DNA from: Methanomassiliicoccus luminyensis B10
GTDB lineage: Archaea > Thermoplasmatota > Thermoplasmata > Methanomassiliicoccales > Methanomassiliicoccaceae
Assembly: GCF_000308215.1 (NCBI RefSeq)
Contig: NZ_CAJE01000012.1
Coordinates: 504,894-568,893, forward strand
Direction: 5' to 3'
Length of the DNA: 64,000 nt
Positions 8,172-63,264 of this stretch are shown here, one piece after another. Position 1 is the stretch's first letter; every line of letters begins with the position of its first letter. Made by a program: the position numbers and the translations under genes. The notes under the pieces were generated by a model. It did not search any database and had not been told where the DNA came from. It saw only the letters and a list, made by a program, of their open reading frames with translations.

Positions 8172-8921
8172 TCAGGCATTGTACCCTCCGATGCGCCAGC
8201 GGAGGTACAGCACCACCGCGAAGACCAGGACCAGAGAGAACAGCAGGCCGAACAGGGAGGCCGACGAGCCCAGCCTGCCCTCGAAAAGCTCTCCGAACGA
8301 GGCGAACAGGTTGAACGATGCGTGCATGAGCACGGCGATGCCGAAGTAGGGCCACCAGCGCCCCCCGTAGACCTTGGCCCTTGCTACCCCGTACCCAGCG
8401 ATGGAGGAGGCCGATGCGTGCATGAGGGTGGACGAGAAGCTCCTGACAATGGCCACGGCGAGGAACGCGGAGTACCCTCCCTGGAACAGGGCGGTGCTCT
8501 CGTACAGGAAGTTCTCGGTGGCGGCGAAGCCCAGGCCGCTGGCGGCCCCGAACACCAGGCCGTTGCGCGGCCTCCAGATATAGCGGGAGGAGAACCGTAT
8601 CACCCCCAGCACCTTGGCGAGCTCCTCCACCAGGGGGGCGATGACGATGATCAGCAGGAACGTGGCGGTGCTGGGGTTCCGGACGAAGAACTCGTACTCC
8701 CGCAGGATAACGAAGTCCAGCAGGGTGGTGGCCACCAGCTCCAGGGCGGTGGCGAACACCGCCGCCACCACCGCCCCGAAGAGGTAGGTTGGGATTATGT
8801 GCTCCCACCGCTCCTTCCTCCCTCTCTCCCCGGAGCGGAGCCAAAGCAGCGCCAGCAGCGTCGGCACGAAGGCGGCGAAGAGCAGCACCAGAACTGCCGC
8901 CACGTTATCGAGGGGGGACAT
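8172..8921 (-). CDS. PrsW-family intramembrane metalloprotease
   Basis: Multi-TM protein with EELAK, FAATEN and HASFN motifs characteristic of PrsW/CPBP-type proteases. Confidence 0.75.
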   Translation of the reverse strand: MSPLDNVAAVLVLLFAAFVPTLLALLWLRSGERGRKERWEHIIPTYLFGAVVAAVFATALELVATTLLDFVILREYEFFVRNPSTATFLLIIVIAPLVEELAKVLGVIRFSSRYIWRPRNGLVFGAASGLGFAATENFLYESTALFQGGYSAFLAVAIVRSFSSTLMHASASSIAGYGVARAKVYGGRWWPYFGIAVLMHASFNLFASFGELFEGRLGSSASLFGLLFSLVLVFAVVLYLRWRIGGYNA

Positions 8922-9037
8922 GCAGGCGTTATTTCAGGCCTGAAGGTATATGAACGTGCCCGGAGCAGGCCGGGGACATGATGAAAATCAAAGAAGGGTG
9001 GAGCGAAGCTCCAGTTGGGTGTGGTCCGACGGAACGT

Positions 9038-9211
9038 TCAGTCCATCGAGATGGCGGAATTGGGGCACTCGTCAACGCAAGCGCCGCAGTCAACGCAGTC
9101 CTTCTCGTTGATGACCGCGATGTCGTTCTCGATCTTGATGGCCGACTGGGGGCAAACGTCCTCGCAGGCTCCGCATCCAACGCACTCTTCGTTCTTTACT
9201 TTCACTGCCAA
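9038..9211 (-). CDS. 2x[4Fe-4S] ferredoxin
   Basis: Two CxxCxxCxxxCP motifs (CVGCGACEDVCP and CVDCGACVDECP). The likely TTG/GTG start lies just after a GAGGTG RBS; the ORF was trimmed from 9038-9289. Confidence 0.75.
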   Translation of the reverse strand: MAVKVKNEECVGCGACEDVCPQSAIKIENDIAVINEKDCVDCGACVDECPNSAISMD

Positions 9212-9327
9212 ACTGAACACCTCGATTGTGGAAGTGCGAAACGAATGTTTGTATAAAAATCCTTTCACTGCGGCATCTACGTCCATCAATCAAAATAAAG
9301 AAAGAAAAGAGGTGAGGCGGGGGCGCC

Positions 9328-10746
9328 TCAAGAGAAGATATTGTACCTGAATTCGTAGCCCTCGGTCCTCACCAGGTTCGGCAGCTCCCCCCGGCCTATG
9401 AGCTGGAAGGCGTGGCGGATGACGGCCTCATAGAACTCGCAGTAGGGGCTCTTTCCGAAGATGGTGCCATTCTCGCTGTACACCTCCCCGGGGCACGGCG
9501 CCCCGCAGATGTTGCGCAGGGCGCAGGTGCCACAGGTAGGGATGTTCTCCGCCCAGCGGGACCGGACCAGAGAGAGGGCGGGGGACCTGACGGCCCTCTC
9601 CACCCCTCCGGCCTGGAACACGCTCTCGGTCCTGAAGTCCGCCAGGCCGAGGAATTCGCTGCACGGGTAGATGGAGCCGTCAGAGGCTACCGAGACAAAG
9701 CACCGCCCCCCGCCGCAGGGAGTGATGTCGCACATCAGCCTCCGGCCCATGGGGGCGATGATCCCCAGGACCAGGTTAGAGAAGTCGGCGATGGTGATCC
9801 TCTGCCCGCCCTTGGTCCTCTCCACCGCCCTCTCTACCGCGGCCATGAACTGGGGGATCAGCAGCTCGTTGGCCGGCCTGATCTTCCTCGCCACCTCTTG
9901 CGTTCCCCTCACCGGGTTCATCAATACAGAGGGCACTTTCCTGTCGGCGAGGAAGTCGATCATCTGAGGCAGCGTGCCCACGTTCATCGAGCTGATGGTG
10001 CAGATGACGCTCATCGCCTTGTAGCCATCGAGGCGCTCGATCACGTGGACGGCCTTATCGTAGGTCCCCCCGCTCCCTCCGCGCAGCGGCCGGATGCGGT
10101 CGTTGACCTCCTTTATCGGAGAGTCAAGGGACACTCCGACCGACACTTTGTGGTCCATGAAGAAGTCGCAGGTACCGTCATCGAGGTGAAAGCCGTTGGT
10201 CTGGACCCCGAAGGCGAAGCGGTCGGAGTAGTCGAGAACCACCTGCTTCAGGACGTCCTTCACCAAGAGCGGCTCGCTGCCGTGGAAGATGATCACCGGG
10301 CGCTTGCCGTCGCGGTTGCGCATCACCGAGCCGGGATAGTTCTCGAAGAAGTCGTGGAGATTGTCCAGGGCCAGGGACACCTGGGCATAGGTCATGTGCG
10401 GCCCCGCCGCCCTGAGGTCGTCGGGGAGATAGCAGTACTTGCAGCTGGCGTTGCACATGCCGGTAGGATTGAAGTACACCGCGCTGAAGCGCTCCGATTC
10501 ACGGAACTCGCGAAGCTCCTTGCGCATGCTCTCGGCGTGCTCGCTGTACATAGGGAGGATCTCGTTCTGCAGGGACGAACTTAGGTCCCGGTCCTTGGAG
10601 ACCATCGCCCAGAACATGGTGTCGGGGTCCAACAGGGCGTACCATTGCCCTACATCTATGAGCTGGAGATGCGGCCCTTGGCCGGAGTTCAGCCCGAACG
10701 GGATCACAGAGCTTGCGCTGGGTTGGGGATTTTCTGACATCATCAA
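9328..10746 (-). CDS. radical SAM/SPASM-domain enzyme (peptide-maturase/anSME-like) with ~100-aa N-terminal extension
   Basis: CNASCKYC (Cx3Cx2C) radical SAM cluster motif. The C-terminal SPASM cysteines are present (CDITPCGGGRCF ... CSEF ... CGTCALRNICGAPCPGE). An AGGTG RBS lies upstream of the ATGATGATG start. Confidence 0.85.
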   Translation of the reverse strand: MMMSENPQPSASSVIPFGLNSGQGPHLQLIDVGQWYALLDPDTMFWAMVSKDRDLSSSLQNEILPMYSEHAESMRKELREFRESERFSAVYFNPTGMCNASCKYCYLPDDLRAAGPHMTYAQVSLALDNLHDFFENYPGSVMRNRDGKRPVIIFHGSEPLLVKDVLKQVVLDYSDRFAFGVQTNGFHLDDGTCDFFMDHKVSVGVSLDSPIKEVNDRIRPLRGGSGGTYDKAVHVIERLDGYKAMSVICTISSMNVGTLPQMIDFLADRKVPSVLMNPVRGTQEVARKIRPANELLIPQFMAAVERAVERTKGGQRITIADFSNLVLGIIAPMGRRLMCDITPCGGGRCFVSVASDGSIYPCSEFLGLADFRTESVFQAGGVERAVRSPALSLVRSRWAENIPTCGTCALRNICGAPCPGEVYSENGTIFGKSPYCEFYEAVIRHAFQLIGRGELPNLVRTEGYEFRYNIFS

Positions 10747-10784
10747 ATATCACACCTTTGAGGAAAAGGTTTGGGGAAAGGGGT

Positions 10785-10880
10785 TTAGAAGGGCAGTTCG
10801 CCCGCACCGTCGTAGATGATGTAGTGCGAGAGCCCGTTTCCGTCCACCTTGCACTCCATCCTACACATCACAACGCTCAT
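10785..10880 (-). CDS. candidate 31-aa precursor peptide MSVVMCRMECKVDGNGLSHYIIYDGAGELPF
   Basis: Small ORF immediately upstream of the rSAM/SPASM gene on the same strand (38-nt gap). An AGGAG RBS sits 11 nt upstream of the ATG. A TATA box and palindrome lie upstream. It contains two Cys residues. Confidence 0.35.
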   Translation of the reverse strand: MSVVMCRMECKVDGNGLSHYIIYDGAGELPF

Positions 10881-10897
10881 TTTTTCACACGCTCCTC

Positions 10898-10918
10898 AGT
10901 TGGATGATACATCCAACT
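10898..10918. promoter_or_regulatory. 21-bp perfect palindrome AGTTGGATGATACATCCAACT just downstream of a TATA box (minus-strand promoter of peptide/rSAM operon)
   Basis: Read directly from the sequence. A TTATATA element (plus 10945-10951) lies ~25 bp upstream on the minus strand. The same 15-bp core recurs at 59193-59211. Confidence 0.6.
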
Positions 10919-11077
10919 AACACGGAAACTAAAATCCCGACTATATAACCATTACTGCATGTAAATTACAGTTGGATGTATGCTCCAACCAATCTGGCCC
11001 ATTGGATTGTTTCCACTTTTTTCAAGGCGATGCCGCACATACATGTTTGAAATACTGGGGTCCCGTTTTTCTCCCCG

Positions 11078-12145
11078 ATGCAGTACGTTTCGGGGCAGCT
11101 GCTGACCGAGGAGGGCTTCGTCGAGGGGCACGTCGGCTTCGAGGATGGGGTCGTCGCCGAGGTGGGCAGGGGGAAGGCAAAGGACAGCGTGTCCGAGGGG
11201 CTCATCCTCCCCACGTTCGTGAATGCGCACACCCATATCGCCGACTACGTCGTGCCGGTGGACCCCTTGCTGTCCCTGGCCGAGGTGGTAGCGCCGCCCC
11301 ATAGCCTCAAGTACCGTGTGCTTGCTGCTACACCTGAATCGAAGCAGCGGGAGGCCATCGGCTACCTCTCGGAGCGCATGGCTAGGGGCGGGACCTCGGT
11401 GTTCTCGGACTTCCGCGAGGGCGGCATTGGCGGCGCGAGGCTGATGTCCTCGGCCGAGGGAGCGAGGGCGTTCGTCCTCGGAAAGCCCCAGGCCCCTCAT
11501 TTCGACCGCGAGGAGATCTCCGCCCTCCTGGATGTCGCTGAGGGCATCGGCCCGTCGGCCATCTCGGACTGGGACTACGAGGAGCTGCGGGAGCTGGCCT
11601 CGTTCGTCCGCTCCCGGGGGAAGGTGTTCGCCATCCACTGCTCTGAGAGGATCAGAGAGGACCTGGACAAGGTCCTGGACCTGAGGCCGTCGTACCTCGT
11701 CCACATGACCCAGGCCACCGACGCGGACCTGGAGAGATGCGCCCAGCTCGACGTTCCCGTGGTGGTGTGCCCGAGGTCCAACATGTTCTTCGGCATGGCC
11801 CCGCCCCTGGCCCGCATGGTCCGCCACGGCGTGACCGTAGCGCTCGGCACCGACAACGCCATGATATCCATGCCCGACCTATTCGTGGAGATGGAGTTCG
11901 CGGGGAGACTGCTCCGGCAGCAGGGCGAAAAGCGGCTGGACTGCGTAATTCGTATGGCGGCCAGTCATGGCAGAAAAATTATAAATCGTAGCCCACTAAT
12001 AGAGATTGACCCGGGCGCGCCATGCGACTTCATGGTGGTCCGGTCCCAGAACGGCGATCCCGTCACCGACCTTGTCCTGCGGACCGCAGGGGAACAGCCC
12101 CTCCTGGTATGCATGGGAGGTAGGACATGGAGAGGACCACAATGA
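11078..12145 (+). CDS. amidohydrolase-family metal-dependent hydrolase (chlorohydrolase/deaminase-like)
   Basis: N-terminal metal-binding HxH motif (FVNAHTHIADY) and later H/D residues. Length ~355 aa. Confidence 0.7.
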   Translation: MQYVSGQLLTEEGFVEGHVGFEDGVVAEVGRGKAKDSVSEGLILPTFVNAHTHIADYVVPVDPLLSLAEVVAPPHSLKYRVLAATPESKQREAIGYLSERMARGGTSVFSDFREGGIGGARLMSSAEGARAFVLGKPQAPHFDREEISALLDVAEGIGPSAISDWDYEELRELASFVRSRGKVFAIHCSERIREDLDKVLDLRPSYLVHMTQATDADLERCAQLDVPVVVCPRSNMFFGMAPPLARMVRHGVTVALGTDNAMISMPDLFVEMEFAGRLLRQQGEKRLDCVIRMAASHGRKIINRSPLIEIDPGAPCDFMVVRSQNGDPVTDLVLRTAGEQPLLVCMGGRTWRGPQ

Positions 12146-54830: not shown

Positions 54831-57800
54831 TCATTCGCTGGTGTCTATCCCTCTCTTGGCCAGTGCCTCCCTGACCTTGACGGGGACCTTGGCGGCCTCT
54901 TTGACGGGGGGCTTCTTCTCCTGCTTCTTCTGGTAGACCACCCGGGGAGGCTCCTCTTCCTCCTCCGGCTCGTCCTCGTCGACCTTGAACTGGGCGGCGA
55001 TCCTCTTCAGGTTGATGGCCATCTCGCTGAGCGATTGCGCCCTGGCGGTCATGTCCTCCATCGAGGCGGTCAGCTCTTCCGTGGACGATGCCGACTCCTC
55101 GGCCGCCGAGGCGGTCTCCTCGGCGATAGAGGCTATGCCGTCCACCGACTTGGCGGCCTTCTGGGTACCCTCCTTCTGCGCCTCCATCAACGTGGCGATG
55201 GTGGTCATCTCCGACGACGACTGGGCGACGCTCGACGAGATCTCCTGGAAGGCCTTCCCGGTCTGGTCCACGATCTTCATGCCCTCGGCCGCCTCCTTGG
55301 TGCCGCGGCCCATGGCCTCTACCGCCTTGGAGGTTTCCTGCTGCACTTCCTTGATCATCTTGGCGATGCGTTCCGCGGCCTCGCGGGAATCCTCGGCCAG
55401 GTTCTTGACCTCCTCGGCCACTACCGCGAACCCTCTTCCCTGGTCCCCGGCGCGGGCGGCCTCGATGGCCGCGTTCAGCGCCAGCAAGTTGGTTTGATCG
55501 GATATATTGGTGATTACGTCGACGATCTGCCCGATCTCCTCGGACCTCTTGCCGAGGACCGCGATGACCTTGGCGGACTCCTCCACCACCTTCTGGATCT
55601 CCTGCATCTTGTTGACGGTGCTCTCCACGGCGGCCTGTCCCTTCTCGGCGGCCTCCGCGCCCTTCTTGGCGGACTGGGTGGCGAATTGGGTCCGGTCGAC
55701 CACCTGAATGACCGCGGTGGACATCTCCGCCATGGCCTTGGCCGTTTCGTCCACCTGGGCGGACTGGCTCTGCGCGCCCTTGCTGATCTGCTGGATGGCC
55801 GCGGACACCTGCTCGGTGGAGGCGTTCATCTCTTCAGCGGACGAGGCCAGCTCCTGCGAGGTGGAGGACACCATGTCCACGGAGTGATTGACCTCCTTAA
55901 CCAGCGAGGTGAGGCTCTCCCCGATCTTGTCGAGGCTGTCGGCGAAGGTAGTGAAATCGCCTTGGGTCTCCACCTCCAGGCGGGCGGTGAGGTCACCGTT
56001 GGCGAAGGAGTCGGCCACCCTCATGGCGTCCTCCAGCGGCCGTATCACCGCGTCCATGGTATCGTTGACGCCCTTCACGATGGTCTGGTAGTCTCCTTTG
56101 TGCACCGAGATGTCGGTCCTGGTGGAAAGCTGGCCGGCGATGGCCGCCTTGCTCAGCATCTCGGTGTCCCTTACCAGCGCGTCGATGGCATCGATGCACT
56201 GGTTGAGGTTTACTTTAATAGTGTTGAAGTCCCCGTTGTACTCCTTGGTGATCTTGCTGGGGATGTTGCCCTTGGAAATCCTGTCCACGTACGCCGCGGC
56301 TACCTTCAGGGGGGTTATGAGCGCATCCAGGGTATCATTGACGCCCTCGATGACCTTCTGGTACTCCCCCTGATGCTTGCTCGCGTCGGCGCGCGAGGAG
56401 AGCTTTCCCTGCACCGCCGACTTGGACAGGGTGTTGACGTCGTCCACCAGAGTGGATATGGCGTTCCTGGCCTGGCCCATGTTGTCCATTATCTTAACGA
56501 AGTTGTCGTGGATCTCCTGGGTGTACTGGTCGGGGTTGGCCACGTTGAGGTCCATGACGAGGTTGCCGCAGGCCAGGTTCTGGAGGTTCAGCGCCATCCT
56601 CTCCACCTCGGCGGCCTGGTACTTGCGCTGGCGGATGGCCTTGGTGATGTCCTGCAGCACCTCGCAGTGGCCGATGGATTCGCCCTTGGCGTTCTTGATA
56701 TATGTCGCGTCCACCTGGAGGGCCTTGCCGTCACGGTCCGAGACCGTCCTTCCGGTCCCTTCCCTAAGCCGCACTATGCCGCAGTTCTTGGTGCGGCAGA
56801 TGGGGCCGTTCCAGTTGTGGCAGGGCTTTCCGGCCATTTCCCCCTTCTTGACCTTGAGCATGTCCAGGGAGGCCTGGTTCAGGTAGGTGATGTTCATGTC
56901 CATGTCCGTGACGGACAGGGGGAACGGCACCGAGTCCAGTATCTGCTCGTACCAGAACATCTTGTCCACGACCGTGCCGAGGGTCTCGTTGACACCTTCC
57001 ACCACCTTGCGGTATTCCCCGTGATGGTTGGTGGCATCGACCCTCTGGGTGAAGTTGCCCTTGTTGGCCGCCTCCGACAGGCCGTTGACGTCGTGCACCA
57101 GTCCCCTGATGGAGTCGATGCAGATGTTGAGATTGTTCTTGATAAGGTTCATGTCCCCCTTGAAGTCGTCCTCGACCTTCTGCGACAGGTCGCCCTGGGC
57201 CACTTTCTCGATGTGCTCCGCGGTGATCAGCATGGGACTGGTGACCGCGTCCAGGGTCTCGTTGAACCCCGAGATTATGGATCGGTAATTGCCGTCGAAG
57301 CGGGATGGGTCGGCCCGGGCCTTGAGGTTCCCGGCCAAGGTCTCGTCCACCAGGCGGTGCACCTCCGAGGTTATCTCCGTCTCCTTGGCAATATCAAGGA
57401 TGAACTCCACCGCGCCGACGATATTGCCCTGCTTATCCTTGAGCGGCCCCACCATCCCGCGGATGGGGGTGTCCCCGCTGGGCAGGTGGGCGATGGCGTC
57501 CCCCACGAAGGAGCGGTCCTCGGCCATGGCGCGCCTGGTCGCGCAGTTACCGCCCTTGCAGTGATCGGTGCGCATGAACTCGTGGCAGGGCTTGCCCTTT
57601 ACCTCATCCTGGGTCCGGCCGGTCATCTCCAGGGCCGAGGCGTTCATGAACATTACCCGGAGGTCCTTGTCCATCGCCAGAACGGGAGTGGGAAGGCTGT
57701 TGAGGTAGTTTAGGTGGTCATCGTCGCCCTCATAGCGGACGTTGACGAATCCCATGGACCCGGAGGCCTTGCCGGTCTTATCCTTGAGGGGCTTGGCGCT

Positions 57801-58091
57801 CACGGTGCAGATGACCGTCTCGTCGTCGTTGTTGGTGAACTTGATGTTCTCGGCATACACGCTCCGCCCGGCGCCGATGGCCTCGAACACCGGGCAGCCC
57901 TTCTTGCCGATGGCCCCATTGAAGACGTCGCGGACCCTCAGGCCCACGGCCTCGTGGACGGGGATGCCGGTGAGCGCCTCGGCGGCCTCGTTGAACATGG
58001 TGATCTTCCAGTGAGAATCGGCCGCGTAGGCGGCGATGGGCATAGTGGCTATCAACTCTTCGACAGCGGTCTTTTCCTTCTCCGCTTGCAT
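54831..58091 (-). CDS. soluble (no TM) methyl-accepting chemotaxis protein with three N-terminal PAS domains, tandem HAMP-like repeat array and C-terminal MCP signalling domain
   Basis: 1086 aa. Contains PAS folds, repeated ~90-aa GEY..V.GVN.TLD units, and an MCP methylation/signalling core. No TM helix is apparent. Confidence 0.9.
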
Positions 58092-58297
58092 AATTCAACC
58101 CCATTCGGCCAGTTACCAGATTTTGGCCATAAATATCAATTTAGAAAAATTCTTTAGTATATATGTATTAAGAACCCAATATCGATAATGATTACAATCT
58201 TTTTATTTATGTCCTCGTCCTATGTCTGCTTCCGACATATTTATCCCTGTTCATCAATAGACAAGTTTTATAATCGCAGTTTCTCGATGGAGCGCGG

Positions 58298-59137
58298 ATG
58301 CCCAGCAAGAAGACCGCCGACCCGGAGTTCATCGCCCTGAAGAAGGAGGTTTACAGGAAGACCTCCCTCGATTGCGAGCAGTTCAAGGACTCCTATCTTC
58401 GGCGGAGGTTCGCGGCCCGCATGCGCTCCCGGGGGGTGCAGCAGTACGCTGACTACATCGCCCTGCTGGGCTCCGACCCCGCCGAGGCGGGGGAGCTTAT
58501 GAGGGACATCACCATCAACGTGACCCAGTTCTTCCGGGACGCCCCCGTGTTCAAGGCATTGGAAGAAGAGGTCGTCCCGCTCCTGATCTACCGGAAGGTG
58601 AAGGAGGGAAGGCCTATCATCAAGGTGTGGAGCGCCGGCTGCTCGAGCGGCGAGGAGCCCTATTCCGTAGCCATCATCCTGCGCGACCTCCTGGGAGAGG
58701 AGTATGATAAATTCTCCGTATCCATCGTGGCGACGGACATAGATAGGGAGTGCCTGATGTCTGGCCAGGAAGGGATCTATCTCCCACGTCAGCTGATGAA
58801 CGTGGCCCCGGAGCACTTGAGGAAATATTTCGTGCAGGAGGGGGAGAGGCACCGGGTGGTCCCGGAGATAAGGGACATGGTGGACTTCCTGGAGCTTGAC
58901 CTGTTCTCGGGGACGGCCGGCACCAACTTCGACCTCATCCTGTGCCGGAACGTGGCCATCTACTTCACCAAGGAGATGCAGGAAAGACTGTACATGAAGT
59001 TCGTCCGGGCCCTGGGCGAGGGGGGTTACTTCGTGATGGGCAACACCGAGAACCTGGTGGGGGACGCTTCCAGGATGCTGACCACGGTAAGGACCAGGGA
59101 GCGGATCTATCAGAAAGCGGCTAGGGAGCGGCGATAG
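58298..59137 (+). CDS. cheR: chemotaxis protein methyltransferase CheR
   Basis: CheR N-terminal and SAM-binding motifs (VWSAGCSSGEEPYS). Confidence 0.85.
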   Translation: MPSKKTADPEFIALKKEVYRKTSLDCEQFKDSYLRRRFAARMRSRGVQQYADYIALLGSDPAEAGELMRDITINVTQFFRDAPVFKALEEEVVPLLIYRKVKEGRPIIKVWSAGCSSGEEPYSVAIILRDLLGEEYDKFSVSIVATDIDRECLMSGQEGIYLPRQLMNVAPEHLRKYFVQEGERHRVVPEIRDMVDFLELDLFSGTAGTNFDLILCRNVAIYFTKEMQERLYMKFVRALGEGGYFVMGNTENLVGDASRMLTTVRTRERIYQKAARERR

Positions 59138-59192
59138 CCCCCTAACGTTCGTTCCAGGTGCATGTACGAATCGCATCCGATTATTTATACCA

Positions 59193-59211
59193 GCTGGATG
59201 ATACATCCAGC
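59193..59211. promoter_or_regulatory. 19-bp perfect palindrome GCTGGATGATACATCCAGC directly downstream of TATA-like TTATTTATA, upstream of cbiA
   Basis: Read from the sequence. It shares the 15-bp core TGGATGATACATCCA with the palindrome at 10898-10918. Confidence 0.6.
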
Positions 59212-59259: not shown

Positions 59260-60612
59260 ATGAAGGCACCAAGGTTCGTGATCGCCGGAGAGCGGAGCGG
59301 GGTCGGGAAATCCACCATTACCGTAGGCATACTGCTCTCGCTCAAGGCCAGGGGGCTGGACCCCCAGCCGTTCAAGACCGGCCCCGATTTCCTCGACCCC
59401 ATGCACCACAGCATCGTGCTGGGCAAGCCGTCGCGGAACCTGGACACCTGGATGTTCGGCCCGCGGGTCAAGGATACCTTCGCGCGCGGGGCCAAGGGCT
59501 CAGGGATATCGGTCATCGAGGGCGTTATGGGGCTGTTCGACGGCGACGGGGGCCGGCGCGAGGAAGGGTCCACCGCACACCTCTCCAAGGTGCTGAACGC
59601 TCCGGTGGTGCTCATCGTCAACGCGGCCAACACCGCGCGCAGCGCGGGGGCCATCGCCCTGGGGTTCAAGAACTATGACCCCGATGTCAACATCGCAGGG
59701 GTCATCTTCAATAACGTGTCCAGCAAGAGGCACCTCGGCATGCTGGAGGATTCGCTGAGGGGCATGGAAAGCCTTGGCGGCATCCCCGCGGTGAAGGACG
59801 TGCGCCTGGCGAGCAGGCATCTAGGGCTGGTGCCGGCCGGGGAAACGTACGATGCCGACAGGTACGAGCGCATCCGGTTCATGATCGAGGAGAACCTGAA
59901 CATGGACCGCCTGATCGAGATCGCCCGCTCCGTTCCGGATATGGAGGAAGCGGAGGCGCCGGTGATGAAAGGCCGGCCGCGGGCCCGTATCGGGGTCGCC
60001 CAGGACAAGGCCTTCAACTTCTACTATTATGACAACTTCGATATCCTGAGGGGGTTCGGGGCGGAGATCGTGCCGTTCTCTCCCATGTACGACGACCTGC
60101 CGGACGTGGACGGCCTGTACTTCGGGGGCGGATATCCAGAGACGTACGCTCAGCAGCTGCAGGACAACTCGTCCATGCGCCGGAAGGTGAGGGAGCGCGC
60201 CTACGAGGGCATGCCCATCTACGCCGAGTGCGGGGGCATGATGTACGCCTGCGACAGGGTGAGGGACTTCGACGGGAGAACGTACTCCATGACCGGCATC
60301 TTCGACCCCGAGGTGGAGATGACCGACAAGCTCCAGGCGGTGGGGTACGTGGAGGCGGAAGCGGAAAGGGAGAACGTGCTGTGCGGGAAGGGGTGGACCA
60401 CCCGCGGGCACGAGTTCCACTACTCCCGCGTGCTGGGGTCGGGAGAGAAGGAGTACGCGTACAGTCTCAAGCGGGGCAAGGGGATCGCCGGGAACAAGGA
60501 CGGGCTGATAGCCCACAACACCATGGCCTCGTACCTGCATCTGCACTTCGCGTCCTGCCCCCAGTTCGCCGAGCGTTTCGTGGGGAGCTGCGCCGATCAT
60601 GCGAGGCGATGA
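59260..60612 (+). CDS. cbiA: cobyrinate a,c-diamide synthase (CbiA/CobB family; could alternatively be the F430-pathway paralog CfbB)
   Basis: P-loop (GERSGVGKST) in the N-terminus and a C-terminal glutamine amidotransferase domain (ECGGMMY). The internal ATG at 59260 follows a GGAGGAAAGG RBS. Confidence 0.8.
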   Translation: MKAPRFVIAGERSGVGKSTITVGILLSLKARGLDPQPFKTGPDFLDPMHHSIVLGKPSRNLDTWMFGPRVKDTFARGAKGSGISVIEGVMGLFDGDGGRREEGSTAHLSKVLNAPVVLIVNAANTARSAGAIALGFKNYDPDVNIAGVIFNNVSSKRHLGMLEDSLRGMESLGGIPAVKDVRLASRHLGLVPAGETYDADRYERIRFMIEENLNMDRLIEIARSVPDMEEAEAPVMKGRPRARIGVAQDKAFNFYYYDNFDILRGFGAEIVPFSPMYDDLPDVDGLYFGGGYPETYAQQLQDNSSMRRKVRERAYEGMPIYAECGGMMYACDRVRDFDGRTYSMTGIFDPEVEMTDKLQAVGYVEAEAERENVLCGKGWTTRGHEFHYSRVLGSGEKEYAYSLKRGKGIAGNKDGLIAHNTMASYLHLHFASCPQFAERFVGSCADHARR

Positions 60613-60613
60613 G

Positions 60614-62419
60614 ATGAAGGATTACTGGTTCAAGGTCCGCGAGCAGCTCCGGGACTTTCGGCCCGGTCCGAACGTCCGATGCGAATGGTACCCCTGCCAT
60701 TTCAAGGGGCAGGACTGTAGTCTGTGCTTCTGTCCCCTCTACCCTTGCCACGATGAGCGCCTGGGCGAGTTCATCTCCGGCAAGGACGGATCGCGGATAT
60801 GGAGCTGCAAGGAGTGCTTCTGGCCCCACCGGAGCGACGTGGCCAGGGACATCTATGCCCGGCTCGGCGCGCCGGAGGAGCGGCCGTCCGGGGAGGACCT
60901 GAGGAGGATCAAGGAGGAGATAGAGGCCCGGCATCCCGTGTCGGCCATGCCCATCATGGTGCTCGGCGCGACATCGGGAGCGGGAAAGAGCCTGCTGGCG
61001 GCGGCACTATGCCGCATCTTCTCAGACATGGGCTACAACGTCGCGCCGTTCAAGTCCCAGAACATGTCCCTCAACTCCATGGTGACGCCGGAGGGAGAGG
61101 AGATCTCCAGGGCCCAGGCGCTGCAGGCAGCGGCGGCCCGTACCGTTCCGGACGCGCACATGAACCCTATATTGATGAAACCGAAGAAGGACGACATCTC
61201 CCAGATCATCGTGGAGGGGCGGCCGTACAGGGACATGGCCGTGCCCGAGTACTTCGGCGGCTTCACCAACGGGGAGGGGATGGAGATCCTCCGGAGGAAC
61301 TGGGAGCTGCTCCGGCGGACCCGCGACGTGGTGGTGATTGAGGGCGCGGGGTCCCCCGCGGAGATCAACCTGATGGACACCGAGATCGCCAACATGCGGA
61401 CGGCGGAGGTCGCCAGCGCGCCCTGCCTGCTGGTGGTGAACATCGAGTGGGGCGGGGCCTTCGCCTACGCCTACGGCACCATCATGCTGCTGCCTCCCGA
61501 GCAGCGGAGAATGTTCAAGGGCATAATCATCAACAACCTCTACGGAGACCCGGCGTCCCTGCAAGGCGGCATCAAGGAGCTGGAGGAGCGGTTGGGGATC
61601 CCGGTGCTGGGAATCGTTCCGCACGCCGACCACGCGCTGCCGGACGAGGATTCCCAGGACCTCCGCAAGGTGCGGGGGAAGGGAGGGCTGCAGATCGGGG
61701 TGGTGCACCTGCCCCGCATCGCCAACTTCACCGACTTCGACGCGCTCGCTCTGGAAGGCGCTTCGGTCCGCTTCGTCAAGGACCCGGGGGCGTTGAGGGG
61801 CGTGGACGCCGTGGTGATACCCGGAACCAAGAACACCGTGGCCGACCTGAAATGGCTGAGGGGGAGCGGGCTCTTCGACGCCATCAGGGAGCTGAAGGGA
61901 AAGGTGCCCATTCTGGGCATATGCGGCGGCTATCAGATGCTGGGAAAGGAGGTCATCGACCTCAAGGGCCTGGAAGGGGACGAGAAGAAGGCCTGGGAAG
62001 GACTGGGGCTGCTGGACATCTCCACCAACTTCGAGGCCTACGAGAAGAGGACCGTGCTGGTCAACGGCCGCATGAACGCCGGGAACGGCGGCAAGGTGCG
62101 CGGGTACGAGATCCACATGGGGAGGTCGGAGAGCAGGGAAGCGCCCCTGTTCTACCTGGAGGAGAACGGGAAGGACCGGCCGGAGGGGGCGATATCCCCC
62201 GACGGCATGGTGATGGGGTCCTACGTCCACGGCATGTTCGACCTGCCCTCGTTCCGCTCCTACTTCCTGGGCAAGGCGCCGGGGGAAGGGCAGCGGGCGG
62301 AAGCGGAGGTCGACTACGAGGCCTCCGTGGACCAGGGCCTGGACCGGCTCGCCGCGGTGGTGCGGGAGAACCTGGATATGGATAAGCTCGTGAGCATCCT
62401 GAAGGAGGGGCTGCCGTGA
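60614..62419 (+). CDS. cobQ: cobyric acid synthase CobQ/CbiP with N-terminal Cys-rich zf-like small domain
   Basis: N-terminal ~110 aa with CEWYPCHFKGQDCSLCFCPLYPCHDE...CKEC. It is followed by the CobQ ATPase domain (GATSGAGKS) and a GATase domain (GICGGYQMLG ... H). Confidence 0.8.
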   Translation: MKDYWFKVREQLRDFRPGPNVRCEWYPCHFKGQDCSLCFCPLYPCHDERLGEFISGKDGSRIWSCKECFWPHRSDVARDIYARLGAPEERPSGEDLRRIKEEIEARHPVSAMPIMVLGATSGAGKSLLAAALCRIFSDMGYNVAPFKSQNMSLNSMVTPEGEEISRAQALQAAAARTVPDAHMNPILMKPKKDDISQIIVEGRPYRDMAVPEYFGGFTNGEGMEILRRNWELLRRTRDVVVIEGAGSPAEINLMDTEIANMRTAEVASAPCLLVVNIEWGGAFAYAYGTIMLLPPEQRRMFKGIIINNLYGDPASLQGGIKELEERLGIPVLGIVPHADHALPDEDSQDLRKVRGKGGLQIGVVHLPRIANFTDFDALALEGASVRFVKDPGALRGVDAVVIPGTKNTVADLKWLRGSGLFDAIRELKGKVPILGICGGYQMLGKEVIDLKGLEGDEKKAWEGLGLLDISTNFEAYEKRTVLVNGRMNAGNGGKVRGYEIHMGRSESREAPLFYLEENGKDRPEGAISPDGMVMGSYVHGMFDLPSFRSYFLGKAPGEGQRAEAEVDYEASVDQGLDRLAAVVRENLDMDKLVSILKEGLP

Positions 62420-63264
62420 AGTGCGTGATGGTGCAGGGCACCAGCTCCGGCGCGGGCAAGACCACCGTCGCCGCGCTGCTGTGCCGGCACTTCGCCCGGC
62501 AGGGCCTGAGGGTCGCGCCGTTCAAGGCCCAGAACCTGTCGCTGAACTCCTTCGTCACCGCCAGGGGCGAGGAGATGGGCATCTCGCAGGCGTTCCAGGC
62601 ATGGGCCTGCGGGCGCGAGCCGGAGGGGGACATGAACCCCATCCTGCTGAAGCCCCGCTCCGAGGGGAGCTGCCAGATCATACTGTCGGGAAGGCCGTAC
62701 GCCGACGTGGGGCGAGGGGGTGCGACGGCCCACCGCGAAGCGCTGCTGAAAGCAGTGAGGGAGTCCTATGGCCGGTTGGCCGCATCGAACGATGTGGTGA
62801 TCATAGAGGGTTCCGGCTCCCCGGCGGAGATCAACCTGCGTTCGACGGACATTGCCAATATGACCACCGCGGAGATGGCGCGAAGCCCGGTGATACTGGT
62901 AGGGGATATCGAGCGCGGCGGGGTGTTCGCCGCCGTCTACGGCACCTATGGGCTGCTGGAGGAGCGCCACCGCGACCTGGTCAAGGCGTTCGTGATAAAC
63001 CGCTTCAGGGGGGACGCGTCCATCCTGGGGCCGGGGATGGCGAAGCTGCAGGACCTCATGAAGGTGCCCTGCCTGGGAGTATTGCCGTTCGTGGACCTCC
63101 GCTTCCCCTCCGAGGACAGCCTTGACCTCGGCCGGCAGCAGGGCCGGGGGGCGTCGGGGGAGGACATCAGGGAGGCCTGGCTGAAGAACCTTGACCAGTT
63201 CTACGATACGTCCCGCTCGCACATCGACTACGGGATCTTGGAAGCCATCGTGAACGGGCGCTGA
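62416..63264 (+). CDS. CobQ/CobB/MinD-type nucleotide-binding domain protein (CobQ N-domain paralog lacking glutaminase domain)
   Basis: Walker A (GTSSGAGKTT). Alignable to the ATPase half of the upstream cobQ, but it stops at ~280 aa. 4-nt overlap with cobQ. Confidence 0.65.
   Translation: MKCVMVQGTSSGAGKTTVAALLCRHFARQGLRVAPFKAQNLSLNSFVTARGEEMGISQAFQAWACGREPEGDMNPILLKPRSEGSCQIILSGRPYADVGRGGATAHREALLKAVRESYGRLAASNDVVIIEGSGSPAEINLRSTDIANMTTAEMARSPVILVGDIERGGVFAAVYGTYGLLEERHRDLVKAFVINRFRGDASILGPGMAKLQDLMKVPCLGVLPFVDLRFPSEDSLDLGRQQGRGASGEDIREAWLKNLDQFYDTSRSHIDYGILEAIVNGR

Follow-up and report, generated by a model that had tools for sequence, protein, structure and literature searches.

A CbpA/CbpB peptide and radical SAM enzyme pair behind a candidate B12-regulon operator in Methanomassiliicoccus luminyensis

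In a stretch of 64,000 nucleotides (nt) from the archaeon Methanomassiliicoccus luminyensis B10 (contig NZ_CAJE01000012.1, forward-strand positions 504,894 to 568,893; hereafter the window), we identified a gene for a 31-amino-acid peptide, cbpA, followed on the minus strand by cbpB, which encodes a radical S-adenosylmethionine (rSAM) enzyme with a SPASM domain. The pair is preceded by a TATA box and a palindromic putative operator, a further copy of which stands before the cobalamin gene cbiA in the same window. In other lineages the same two genes occur within cobalamin operons or behind cobalamin riboswitches.

Results and Discussion

The cbpA and cbpB genes

The gene cbpA (10785..10880, minus strand) encodes a modified-peptide precursor with the translation MSVVMCRMECKVDGNGLSHYIIYDGAGELPF. 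Its ATG at 10880 lies 11 nt downstream of a ribosome-binding site, GAGGAG (10892..10897, minus strand), that can be read from the sequence. After a gap of 38 nt its stop codon is followed by cbpB (9328..10746, minus strand), which starts with TTG, has its next ATG codons at 10743 and 10740, and encodes a peptide maturase of 472 amino acids. The original prediction, made from the letters of the window and its open reading frames (ORFs), had described a small ORF with its own ribosome-binding site 38 nt upstream of an rSAM gene, and this arrangement is indeed present.

Domains and families were assigned with the Pfam and NCBIfam/TIGRFAMs hidden Markov models (HMMs) and their curated cutoffs, and riboswitches were identified with Rfam. 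CbpB scores 479.7 bits (cutoff 375; E = 7e-144) with TIGR04163, "peptide-modifying radical SAM enzyme CbpB", over residues 32–455 of 472, and the runner-up NCBIfam family, PapB, reaches 114 bits. This score, above the equivalog cutoff, bears out the predicted pairing of a peptide-modifying rSAM/SPASM enzyme with the small ORF. The rSAM motif CNASCKYC occupies residues 98–105 (C98-x3-C102-x2-C105), after about 97 residues. The seven-Cys SPASM motif is complete (C349-x7-G357-x4-C362; C405-x2-C408-x5-C414-x3-C418; C436), with every position invariant or nearly so in the family, and the domain contains nine conserved cysteines between residues 339 and 436. The Pfam Radical_SAM model is over its cutoff with 45.8 bits; the Pfam SPASM model stays under its cutoff of 21.5 with 13.8 bits, and most homologues carry PF13186. 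The nearest relatives, with 81% identity, come from metagenome-assembled genomes (MAGs) of Methanomassiliicoccus, and NCBI names homologues CbpB in Methanomassiliicoccus, the anaerobic methanotrophic (ANME) archaea of group ANME-1, Chloroflexota, Desulfobacterota, Nitrospirota, Omnitrophota and Planctomycetota. At two loci, L046 (a Desulfobacca MAG, upstream of cbpA) and L011 (Hydrothermarchaeum), a second CbpB-like rSAM paralogue is found within a few kb of cbpAB.

The small ORF is the sole match to the CbpA model TIGR04164 (27.8 bits, E = 1.3e-6). An HMM that we trained on 72 peptides encoded upstream of cbpB scores the window peptide at 50.9 bits (E = 2e-13), and the identical 31-residue peptide is present in NCBI and JGI/IMG as "modified peptide precursor CbpA" on 18 contigs. 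With its core, CRMECKVDGNGLSHY, and the short gap to cbpB, it has the pair architecture of the CbpA/CbpB system.

To place the locus among its relatives we used 80 loci with CbpB relatives from species-representative genomes, for which the matches listed exceed 596. Ten of these loci belong to Methanomassiliicoccales and 70 to other lineages. In 76 of the 80, a CbpA-like ORF lies immediately 5' of cbpB on the same strand; 72 were recognized by the motif G-[L]-S-H-[YF] and four, which carry G-L-T-H or G-L-A-H variants, by the HMM. Three of the four loci lacking a CbpA match have just ~140–650 nt of upstream sequence. The pairing extends over more than ten phyla, including Methanomassiliicoccales, ANME-1, Hydrothermarchaeota, Omnitrophota, Planctomycetota, Nitrospirota, Chloroflexota, Desulfobacterota and Bacillota.

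The peptides share the consensus block [IV]-[SA]-[Y]-R-x-x-C-x6-8-G-L-[S/T/A]-H-[Y/F]-[IV]-[LM]. The Cys, the Gly-Leu, the His and the aromatic residue are kept in 76/76 peptides, and the Arg is replaced once, by His (L057). Phe stands in place of Tyr in 16/72 peptides. In the numbering of the window peptide the family-conserved residues are R7, C10, G17, L18, (S19), H20 and Y21, and C6 is confined to the Methanomassiliicoccales clade, in which all ten loci encode M-C-R-[ML]-x-C-K-[VT]-D-G-N-G-L-S-H-Y-I-I-Y. Many CbpA peptides are without a real leader, as just 3–5 residues precede the conserved block. When ten related genomes are compared with the window over the 19-codon core, 64 codon differences are synonymous and nine nonsynonymous, a ratio that indicates that the cbpA reading frame is under purifying selection. 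Conservation beside orthologous rSAM genes had been named beforehand as a check on the small ORF; the 76 loci and the predominance of synonymous changes identify it as a real, conserved, substrate-type peptide gene.

At one bacterial locus, L067 (5765–5950), a single peptide encoded behind a cobalamin riboswitch has two core repeats in tandem (VIAYRSKCDAKGTGLSHYILPEDK / VVAFRRKCDSKGTGLSHYILPEDK). The tandem copies suggest that the block of about 22 residues is a self-contained modified unit.

By these matches the locus is a member of the bioinformatically defined CbpA/CbpB system (TIGR04164/TIGR04163). Because both genes already bear the family names in public databases, it is known at the level of annotation, and the suggestion that such loci are barely documented in archaea does not hold for this one, whose exact peptide and enzyme are publicly named. 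No experimental study of CbpA/CbpB was found in a full-text literature search, which left out most subscription journals.

The promoter and palindromic operator of cbpA

Upstream of cbpA we identified a conserved alignment block containing a presumed TATA box, GGTTATATAG (family consensus CATTATATA), at about 10941..10950 on the minus strand. Between this box and the gene lies a perfect 9+3+9 palindrome, AGTTGGATG-TAT-CATCCAACT (10898..10918), which covers the expected transcription start and is presumed to be a conserved, promoter-proximal repressor operator. None of the ten Methanomassiliicoccales loci departs from its form AGTTGGAT-N5-ATCCAAC at this place between TATA box and cbpA, which bears out the earlier reading of a TATA-proximal palindromic operator. 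Such a location, over the start of transcription, is suggestive of repression.

An imperfect copy, GTTGGATGTATGCTCCAAC on the plus strand (10971..10989), with two mismatches to GTTGGATG-N3-CATCCAAC, lies farther upstream, ~35 nt before the TATA box of cbpA. It is kept in L001–L004, L009 and L010, and is degenerate in L005–L007. This copy is located between the divergent promoters of cbpA and an amidohydrolase gene and might affect both. Over the whole window the palindrome pattern occurs three times where 0.28 occurrences are expected, a count of three that was reached in none of 100 shuffles.

Association with cobalamin genes and riboswitches

For a survey of neighbouring genes, all flanking ORFs of the 80 loci were clustered and representatives annotated with NCBIfam. 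The recurrent neighbours are CobT (23 loci), a BtuD-like ATPase (21), CobS (19), CobQ (15), CobU (14), CbiB (12), a CbiX-type chelatase (12) and CobC (10), and CbiM, BtuC, precorrin methyltransferases, CbiA, BtuF, CbiQ and CobA also recur near cbpAB. In Omnitrophota, Planctomycetota and Nitrospirota, cbpAB is colinear with and located inside cob operons, as in L014, where the order is cobU-cobT-cobS-cobQ-cbiB-cbpA-cbpB-btuFCD. In seven loci, three of them of ANME-1-type archaea, cobT directly follows cbpB. No conserved exporter, peptidase or immunity gene was found across the neighbourhoods of the 80 loci.

In addition, cbpA in 29 of the 56 bacterial loci is preceded on its own strand by a cobalamin riboswitch (RF00174), the end of which lies no more than 300 nt upstream. 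Of the 70 loci from lineages other than Methanomassiliicoccales, at least 58 are linked to cobalamin by operon placement, a riboswitch or both. This association also explains the family label "cobopep", and the TIGRFAMs entry reportedly mentions a setting in cobalamin operons.

In three ANME-1-type loci a gene divergent from cbpA-cbpB-cobT (L016, 4883–5836; L040, 4777–5790; L047, 4820–5839; minus strand) encodes, as far as can be read from its translation, an apparent ribbon-helix-helix N-terminus joined to an AIR-synthase/ThiL-like domain; a role as a local regulator is conceivable.

The operator at cbiA

The window pair lies ~48 kb from the cobalamin genes and is associated with them neither by synteny nor by a riboswitch; what it shares with cbiA is the operator. 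A TATA-like box, ATTATTTATA, followed by the third operator copy, GCTGGATGATACATCCAGC (59193–59211), occupies 59180..59211 on the plus strand, ~50 nt before the start of cbiA, with the same layout of TATA box and then palindrome as at cbpA. Three plus-strand genes follow: cbiA/cobB (59260–60612; TIGR00379, 490 bits), a gene for a fusion of a Cys-rich domain to CobQ (60599–62419; NF001989, 557 bits) and one for a 282-residue paralogue of the N-terminal half of CobQ (62416–63264; NF001989, 351 bits, positions 2–246). The small N-terminal Cys-rich domain of the fusion (WYPCHFKGQDCSLCFCPLYPC...) recurs near bacterial cbpAB genes, there as a fusion to CbiX-type chelatases.

We searched the 25 closest metagenomic cbiA loci (at least 54% identity to the window CbiA; 145 kb in total) for TGGAT-N5-ATCCA with at most one substitution. 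There were 26 matches, 13 of which lie within 120 nt upstream of cbiA, each just past a TATA-like box, so that the operator precedes cbiA in 13 of the 25 related loci. Elsewhere in this set, copies stand before a gene for a BtuF-like binding protein, one for a CbiE-like methyltransferase and one for a DxHxxG corrinoid protein. Copies of the form TTGGAT-N5-ATCCAA occur in the metagenomic loci L082, L084, L085, L088, L089, L091–L097, L102 and L105. Because copies precede cbiA and the BtuF-like, CbiE-like and corrinoid-protein genes, the operator appears to mark a corrinoid-related gene set that includes cbpAB.

The kinds of genes behind the Methanomassiliicoccales operator (cbiA/cobQ, BtuF-like, precorrin methyltransferase-like and cbpAB) are those of bacterial cobalamin riboswitch regulons. 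However, in Methanomassiliicoccales the element consists of a DNA palindrome located at the TATA box and transcription start, which argues for regulation by a protein; no cobalamin riboswitch was found in the archaeal loci, nor was one expected there. By analogy, Methanomassiliicoccales appear to do by a DNA-binding protein what bacteria do by riboswitch. No paper on a B12 operator of Methanomassiliicoccales came up in our full-text search, which most subscription journals lie outside, and in the portions of the literature that the search covered the only archaeal cobalamin regulator was TrmB of Halobacterium.

The N-terminal domain of CbpB

The stretch of approximately 90 residues that leads up to the rSAM core shows conservation throughout the family; it includes the motif D-P-D-T-x-F-W, and W46 and R82 are invariant. 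An AlphaFold2 model of CbpB, built from a 30-sequence alignment (predicted local distance difference test score 88), shows residues 1–23 as disordered, followed by strands at 28–31, 35–40 and 45–50 and one long helix at 55–83. The domain modelled alone gives the same fold. Residues 28–83 are thus predicted to form a family-specific domain of three strands and a long helix.

From their size and position before the Cx3Cx2C motif, these residues had been proposed to form a recognition element of the kind used for peptides synthesized by ribosomes and modified post-translationally (RiPPs). RiPP recognition elements (RREs) are divergent in sequence, and those of the PqqD type have a winged helix-turn-helix fold with a three-stranded sheet and three helices. 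The PqqD model (PF05402) matched neither the whole of CbpB at E <= 1 nor 30 isolated N-terminal domains of the family at E <= 10, and a profile search with the domain against PDB sequences gave no RRE match at E <= 10. Neither by sequence nor by its predicted fold, with a single helix, is the domain a PqqD-type RRE, and we do not retain that proposal. Binding of extended polypeptide by strand addition is known from type III secretion chaperones and makes a similar peptide-holding role plausible for the CbpB domain.

Possible chemistry of the enzyme

Among proteins of solved structure the best relatives of CbpB by sequence are CteB (E = 4e-33) and the anaerobic sulfatase-maturating enzyme (anSME). 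By structure the top neighbours are ChlB (a cyclophane synthase), anSME (oxidation) and CteB (thioether), about equally, followed by TigE, SuiB, SkfB and PqqE. The reactions of such enzymes include cyclophane formation, oxidation of Cys or Ser, thioether formation, cyclopropanation and Lys-Trp linkage. Since these chemistries differ, the neighbours leave the CbpB reaction unsettled, and because ChlB, anSME and CteB score equally we rejected structural neighbourhood as a guide to reaction type.

The sactipeptide and ranthipeptide maturase models PapB (NF047865, 114 bits vs a cutoff of 340) and ScfB (TIGR03974, 79 vs 425) stay under their cutoffs on CbpB, as do those of the cyclophane families AmcB (84 vs 425), YhhB (78.5 vs 445), GrrM (62 vs 310) and FxsB (61 vs 370), the mycofactocin maturase (45 vs 265) and anSME (TIGR03942, 86.3 vs 349, E = 2e-24). 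As CbpB reaches no cutoff of a characterized family and resembles in structure a cyclophane synthase as well as anSME and a sactisynthase, these comparisons do not decide for or against the assignment to a thioether or sactipeptide type made in the original prediction. Grouping with anSME had been named beforehand as a finding that would speak against a RiPP-like locus, and by the TIGR03942 score CbpB does not group there; no sulfatase search reached beyond the window.

The invariant residues of CbpA flank a loop that varies in length from six to eight residues, the Cys preceding it and G-L-x-H-aromatic following it. This arrangement is most simply explained by a macrocycle from the Cys to the C-terminal motif. 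Alternatively, CbpA may form a His/Tyr cyclophane, in which case the R-x-x-C stretch would serve for recognition alone. In the mechanism that we propose, cbpA and cbpB would be carried on one transcript, the N-terminal domain of three strands and a helix would hold the conserved V-M-C-R-M-E stretch of the peptide, the SPASM domain would contain two auxiliary Fe-S clusters, and the G-L-S-H-Y end would lose a hydrogen to a 5'-deoxyadenosyl radical. A cross-link within the peptide would then form, most likely through the invariant Cys10 as a thioether, or else as a His/Tyr cyclophane. Release of p-cresol as a lower ligand by a tyrosine-lyase type of reaction was set aside, given the peptides in which Phe replaces Tyr.

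Function of the CbpA/CbpB pair

From the operon and riboswitch links in bacteria and the palindrome shared with cbiA, we therefore regard cbpAB as a probable member of a B12 regulon. We give a probability of roughly three in four to the joint reading that the locus is a CbpA/CbpB pair and a member of such a regulon; the chemistry set out above deserves much less confidence. Expression of cbpAB is most likely repressed when B12 is sufficient, because cbiA and other corrinoid-related genes stand behind the same operator as cbpA. The product would probably stay inside the cell as a small modified peptide, as no conserved peptidase or exporter accompanies cbpAB, and would most likely act in the biosynthesis or salvage of cobamides.

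More tentatively, and with somewhat less than even odds in our judgement, modified CbpA may be an unrecognized component of anaerobic cobamide biosynthesis or salvage that acts at a late stage beside CobT and CobS, at the level of the lower ligand and nucleotide loop. Such a component might be either a peptide-derived cofactor or a chaperone for cobalt or corrinoid that uses the invariant Cys and His. The same proposal has one repressor at TTGGAT-N5-ATCCAA control cbpAB, cbiA-cobQ, corrinoid uptake and corrinoid-protein genes, which would make it, in this archaeal lineage, the protein counterpart of the bacterial B12 riboswitch.

Several points count against our main explanation of the locus. 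The cbpA peptide is under the TIGR04164 cutoff (27.8 vs 35 bits), and the peptides of its clade are divergent, with Cys for the usual Tyr before the Arg, an acidic tail and hardly any leader. With the cob genes so far from cbpAB, the shared DNA motif is the one tie to B12 within the window, and the regulatory role of the operator is putative. Every HMM of a characterized maturase family is far under its cutoff and the nearest structures represent three chemistries. Peptide binding by the N-terminal domain, which has no detectable similarity to RREs, is deduced from its position and conservation only. Finally, repression by B12 would also fit a function as a B12-independent substitute.

Such a substitute would make CbpAB a back-up for a corrinoid-dependent process rather than part of cobamide synthesis. 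metE and nrdDG are B12-independent back-ups under B12 riboswitches, and in keeping with this kind of role the 29 bacterial riboswitches lie directly upstream of a stand-alone cbpA-cbpB pair, 22 of these 29 loci have no recognizable cob gene within 4.5 kb, and the Methanomassiliicoccales operator also precedes a corrinoid-protein gene. However, at least 36 loci have the pair colinear in cob/cbi/btu operons, typically between cobS/cobT/cbiB and cbiA/btuF, a placement unusual for such isozymes, and we know of no B12-dependent reaction that a cross-linked peptide of 30 residues could replace. We consider this explanation unlikely. Still less probable is a classical secreted RiPP, a sactipeptide or ranthipeptide antimicrobial or signal in which CbpA would have a leader and core, CbpB would be an RRE-containing thioether synthase and the ferredoxin encoded downstream would be its dedicated reductant. 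The layout of precursor and rSAM/SPASM enzyme, the invariant Cys of the peptide, the best non-self HMM matches (the ranthipeptide maturase PapB, QhpD and the SCIFF maturases) and the presence of the sactisynthase CteB among the top sequence and structure matches are all in its favour. Yet the 80 loci share no exporter, peptidase or immunity gene, the core is near-invariant over more than ten phyla, unlike antimicrobial RiPPs, and many peptides have no real leader. The ferredoxin gene lacks conservation and is served by a promoter of its own, no RRE is apparent by sequence or fold, and a housekeeping part in B12 metabolism is indicated by the riboswitches and by the position of the pair in cob operons.

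In the remaining alternative, CbpB would be an anSME-like protein maturase, or an rSAM enzyme with a substrate other than a small peptide, and the short reading frame beside its gene would be there by chance. The E-value of 2e-24 with TIGR03942 speaks for this, but its 86 bits fall far short of 349 while TIGR04163 gives 480, and reading the sequence of CbpA reveals no sulfatase motif C/S-x-P/A-x-R. Because the CbpA-like ORF, with its invariant Cys...G-L-x-H-[YF], recurs in 76 of the 80 loci with mostly synonymous changes, we regard the coincidental ORF and the anSME assignment as refuted.

As a RiPP-like locus the pair is ordinary, since standard annotation names both of its genes. The family, in contrast, is large (more than 596 species-representative genomes), is tied to B12 regulation over more than ten phyla and has apparently never been studied. 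If CbpA/CbpB does serve cobamide synthesis or salvage, a peptide-based step would be added to a pathway that is usually regarded as essentially complete, with the greatest weight for corrinoid-dependent organisms such as methyl-reducing methanogens, ANME archaea and Dehalococcoidia. A search for a B12-responsive transcription factor in archaea could start from the operator.

Comparison with characterized systems

Compared with the CbpA/CbpB family as defined (TIGR04164 'cobo_pep' and TIGR04163 'rSAM_cobopep'), the window locus has the enzyme over the cutoff, the family core in the peptide, tandem genes on the same strand and identical named sequences. It differs in that the Methanomassiliicoccales peptide is near-leaderless, with a second Cys (C-R-x-x-C for Y-R-x-x-C) and an acidic C-terminal tail, and in that the pair is not located beside cob genes and has the shared palindromic operator instead of a riboswitch.

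The SCIFF/CteB system (TIGR03973/TIGR03974; PDB 5WGG) is likewise a widespread, housekeeping-like pair of a peptide and an rSAM/SPASM enzyme without a dedicated exporter or peptidase. However, the N-terminus of CteB is a canonical RRE where CbpB has its domain of three strands and one helix, SCIFF has six cysteines to the one invariant Cys of CbpA, and the TIGR03974 score is 79 against 425. With PqqA/PqqE-PqqD and MftA/MftC the pair shares a short peptide with an aromatic-containing C-terminal motif, processing by an rSAM/SPASM enzyme and a setting in primary or cofactor metabolism. In contrast to these systems, cbpAB has no PqqD/RRE partner or domain, and no equivalents of PqqB/C/F or MftD/E are conserved beside it in the 80 loci. 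The H-[Y/F]-[I/V]-[L/M] of CbpA can be read as the aromatic-X-X motif of three-residue cyclophane synthases (triceptide maturases; ChlB, PDB 9GM3), but the HMMs of those families are far under their cutoffs and CbpA has an invariant Cys and an Arg upstream, which triceptide motifs do not need.

The ferredoxin and other flanking genes

Downstream of cbpB, at 9292..9330 on the minus strand, lies a hairpin (TGAGGCG-CCCC-CGCCTCA) with a T-rich tract, a probable terminator of cbpAB; L001–L004 keep this T-rich tract behind the stop codon of cbpB. It is followed by a gene for a 2x[4Fe-4S] ferredoxin with two CxxCxxCxxxCP motifs (Pfam Fer4, E = 7e-16), listed as an ORF at 9038..9289 (minus strand). 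In an alignment of five syntenic genomes we identified an invariant promoter box, TTTTTATA (9252..9259, minus strand), with a conserved AAG ahead of it (AAG-N3-box) that resembles a transcription factor B recognition element (BRE). About 35 nt after the box come a conserved GAGGTG ribosome-binding site and a (T/A)TG start. Because box, ribosome-binding site and start are conserved, the ferredoxin is best read as a protein of 57 residues with its own promoter, most likely starting at the TTG at 9211 (9038..9211).

The original prediction had counted this ferredoxin as part of the system. By tblastn, however, the genes for the ferredoxin, a PrsW-type protease and a thioredoxin-reductase-like protein occur downstream of cbpB in L001–L004 only; neither the six remaining Methanomassiliicoccales loci nor any of the 70 others have them. 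With the terminator after cbpB and a BRE/TATA element and ribosome-binding site of its own, the ferredoxin gene is, on this evidence, a separately transcribed neighbour outside the conserved cbpAB system, even though its product may donate electrons to CbpB. The PrsW-family glutamic-type intramembrane protease (8172–8921, minus strand; PF13367, E = 5e-30) is encoded downstream of the ferredoxin, with a hairpin and T-tract (8999–9013) between the two genes, and we found no sign that it processes CbpA. Both were rejected as system components, being syntenic in the four closest genomes only. The amidohydrolase gene upstream, together with universal stress protein (USP) and CBS genes, was likewise set aside as local synteny only.

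The window region directly upstream of the cobalamin cluster (54831–59137) contains a receptor gene and a CheR gene. The receptor, on the minus strand, is a protein of 1086 amino acids of the methyl-accepting chemotaxis type, with several PAS-like and HAMP-like repeats, as judged from reading its translation only; the CheR methyltransferase is encoded at 58298–59137 (NF007902, E = 6e-41).

The amidohydrolase gene (11078–12145), divergent from cbpA, is of the chlorohydrolase type (NF005552, 196 bits vs a cutoff of 294). We found no evidence that its product is a 5'-deoxyadenosine deaminase, the chlorohydrolase-type match itself being under the cutoff. Its promoter region (11040–11092, plus strand) contains a conserved TTTGAAATA box ~27 nt before the ATG, a spacing that suggests a leaderless transcript.

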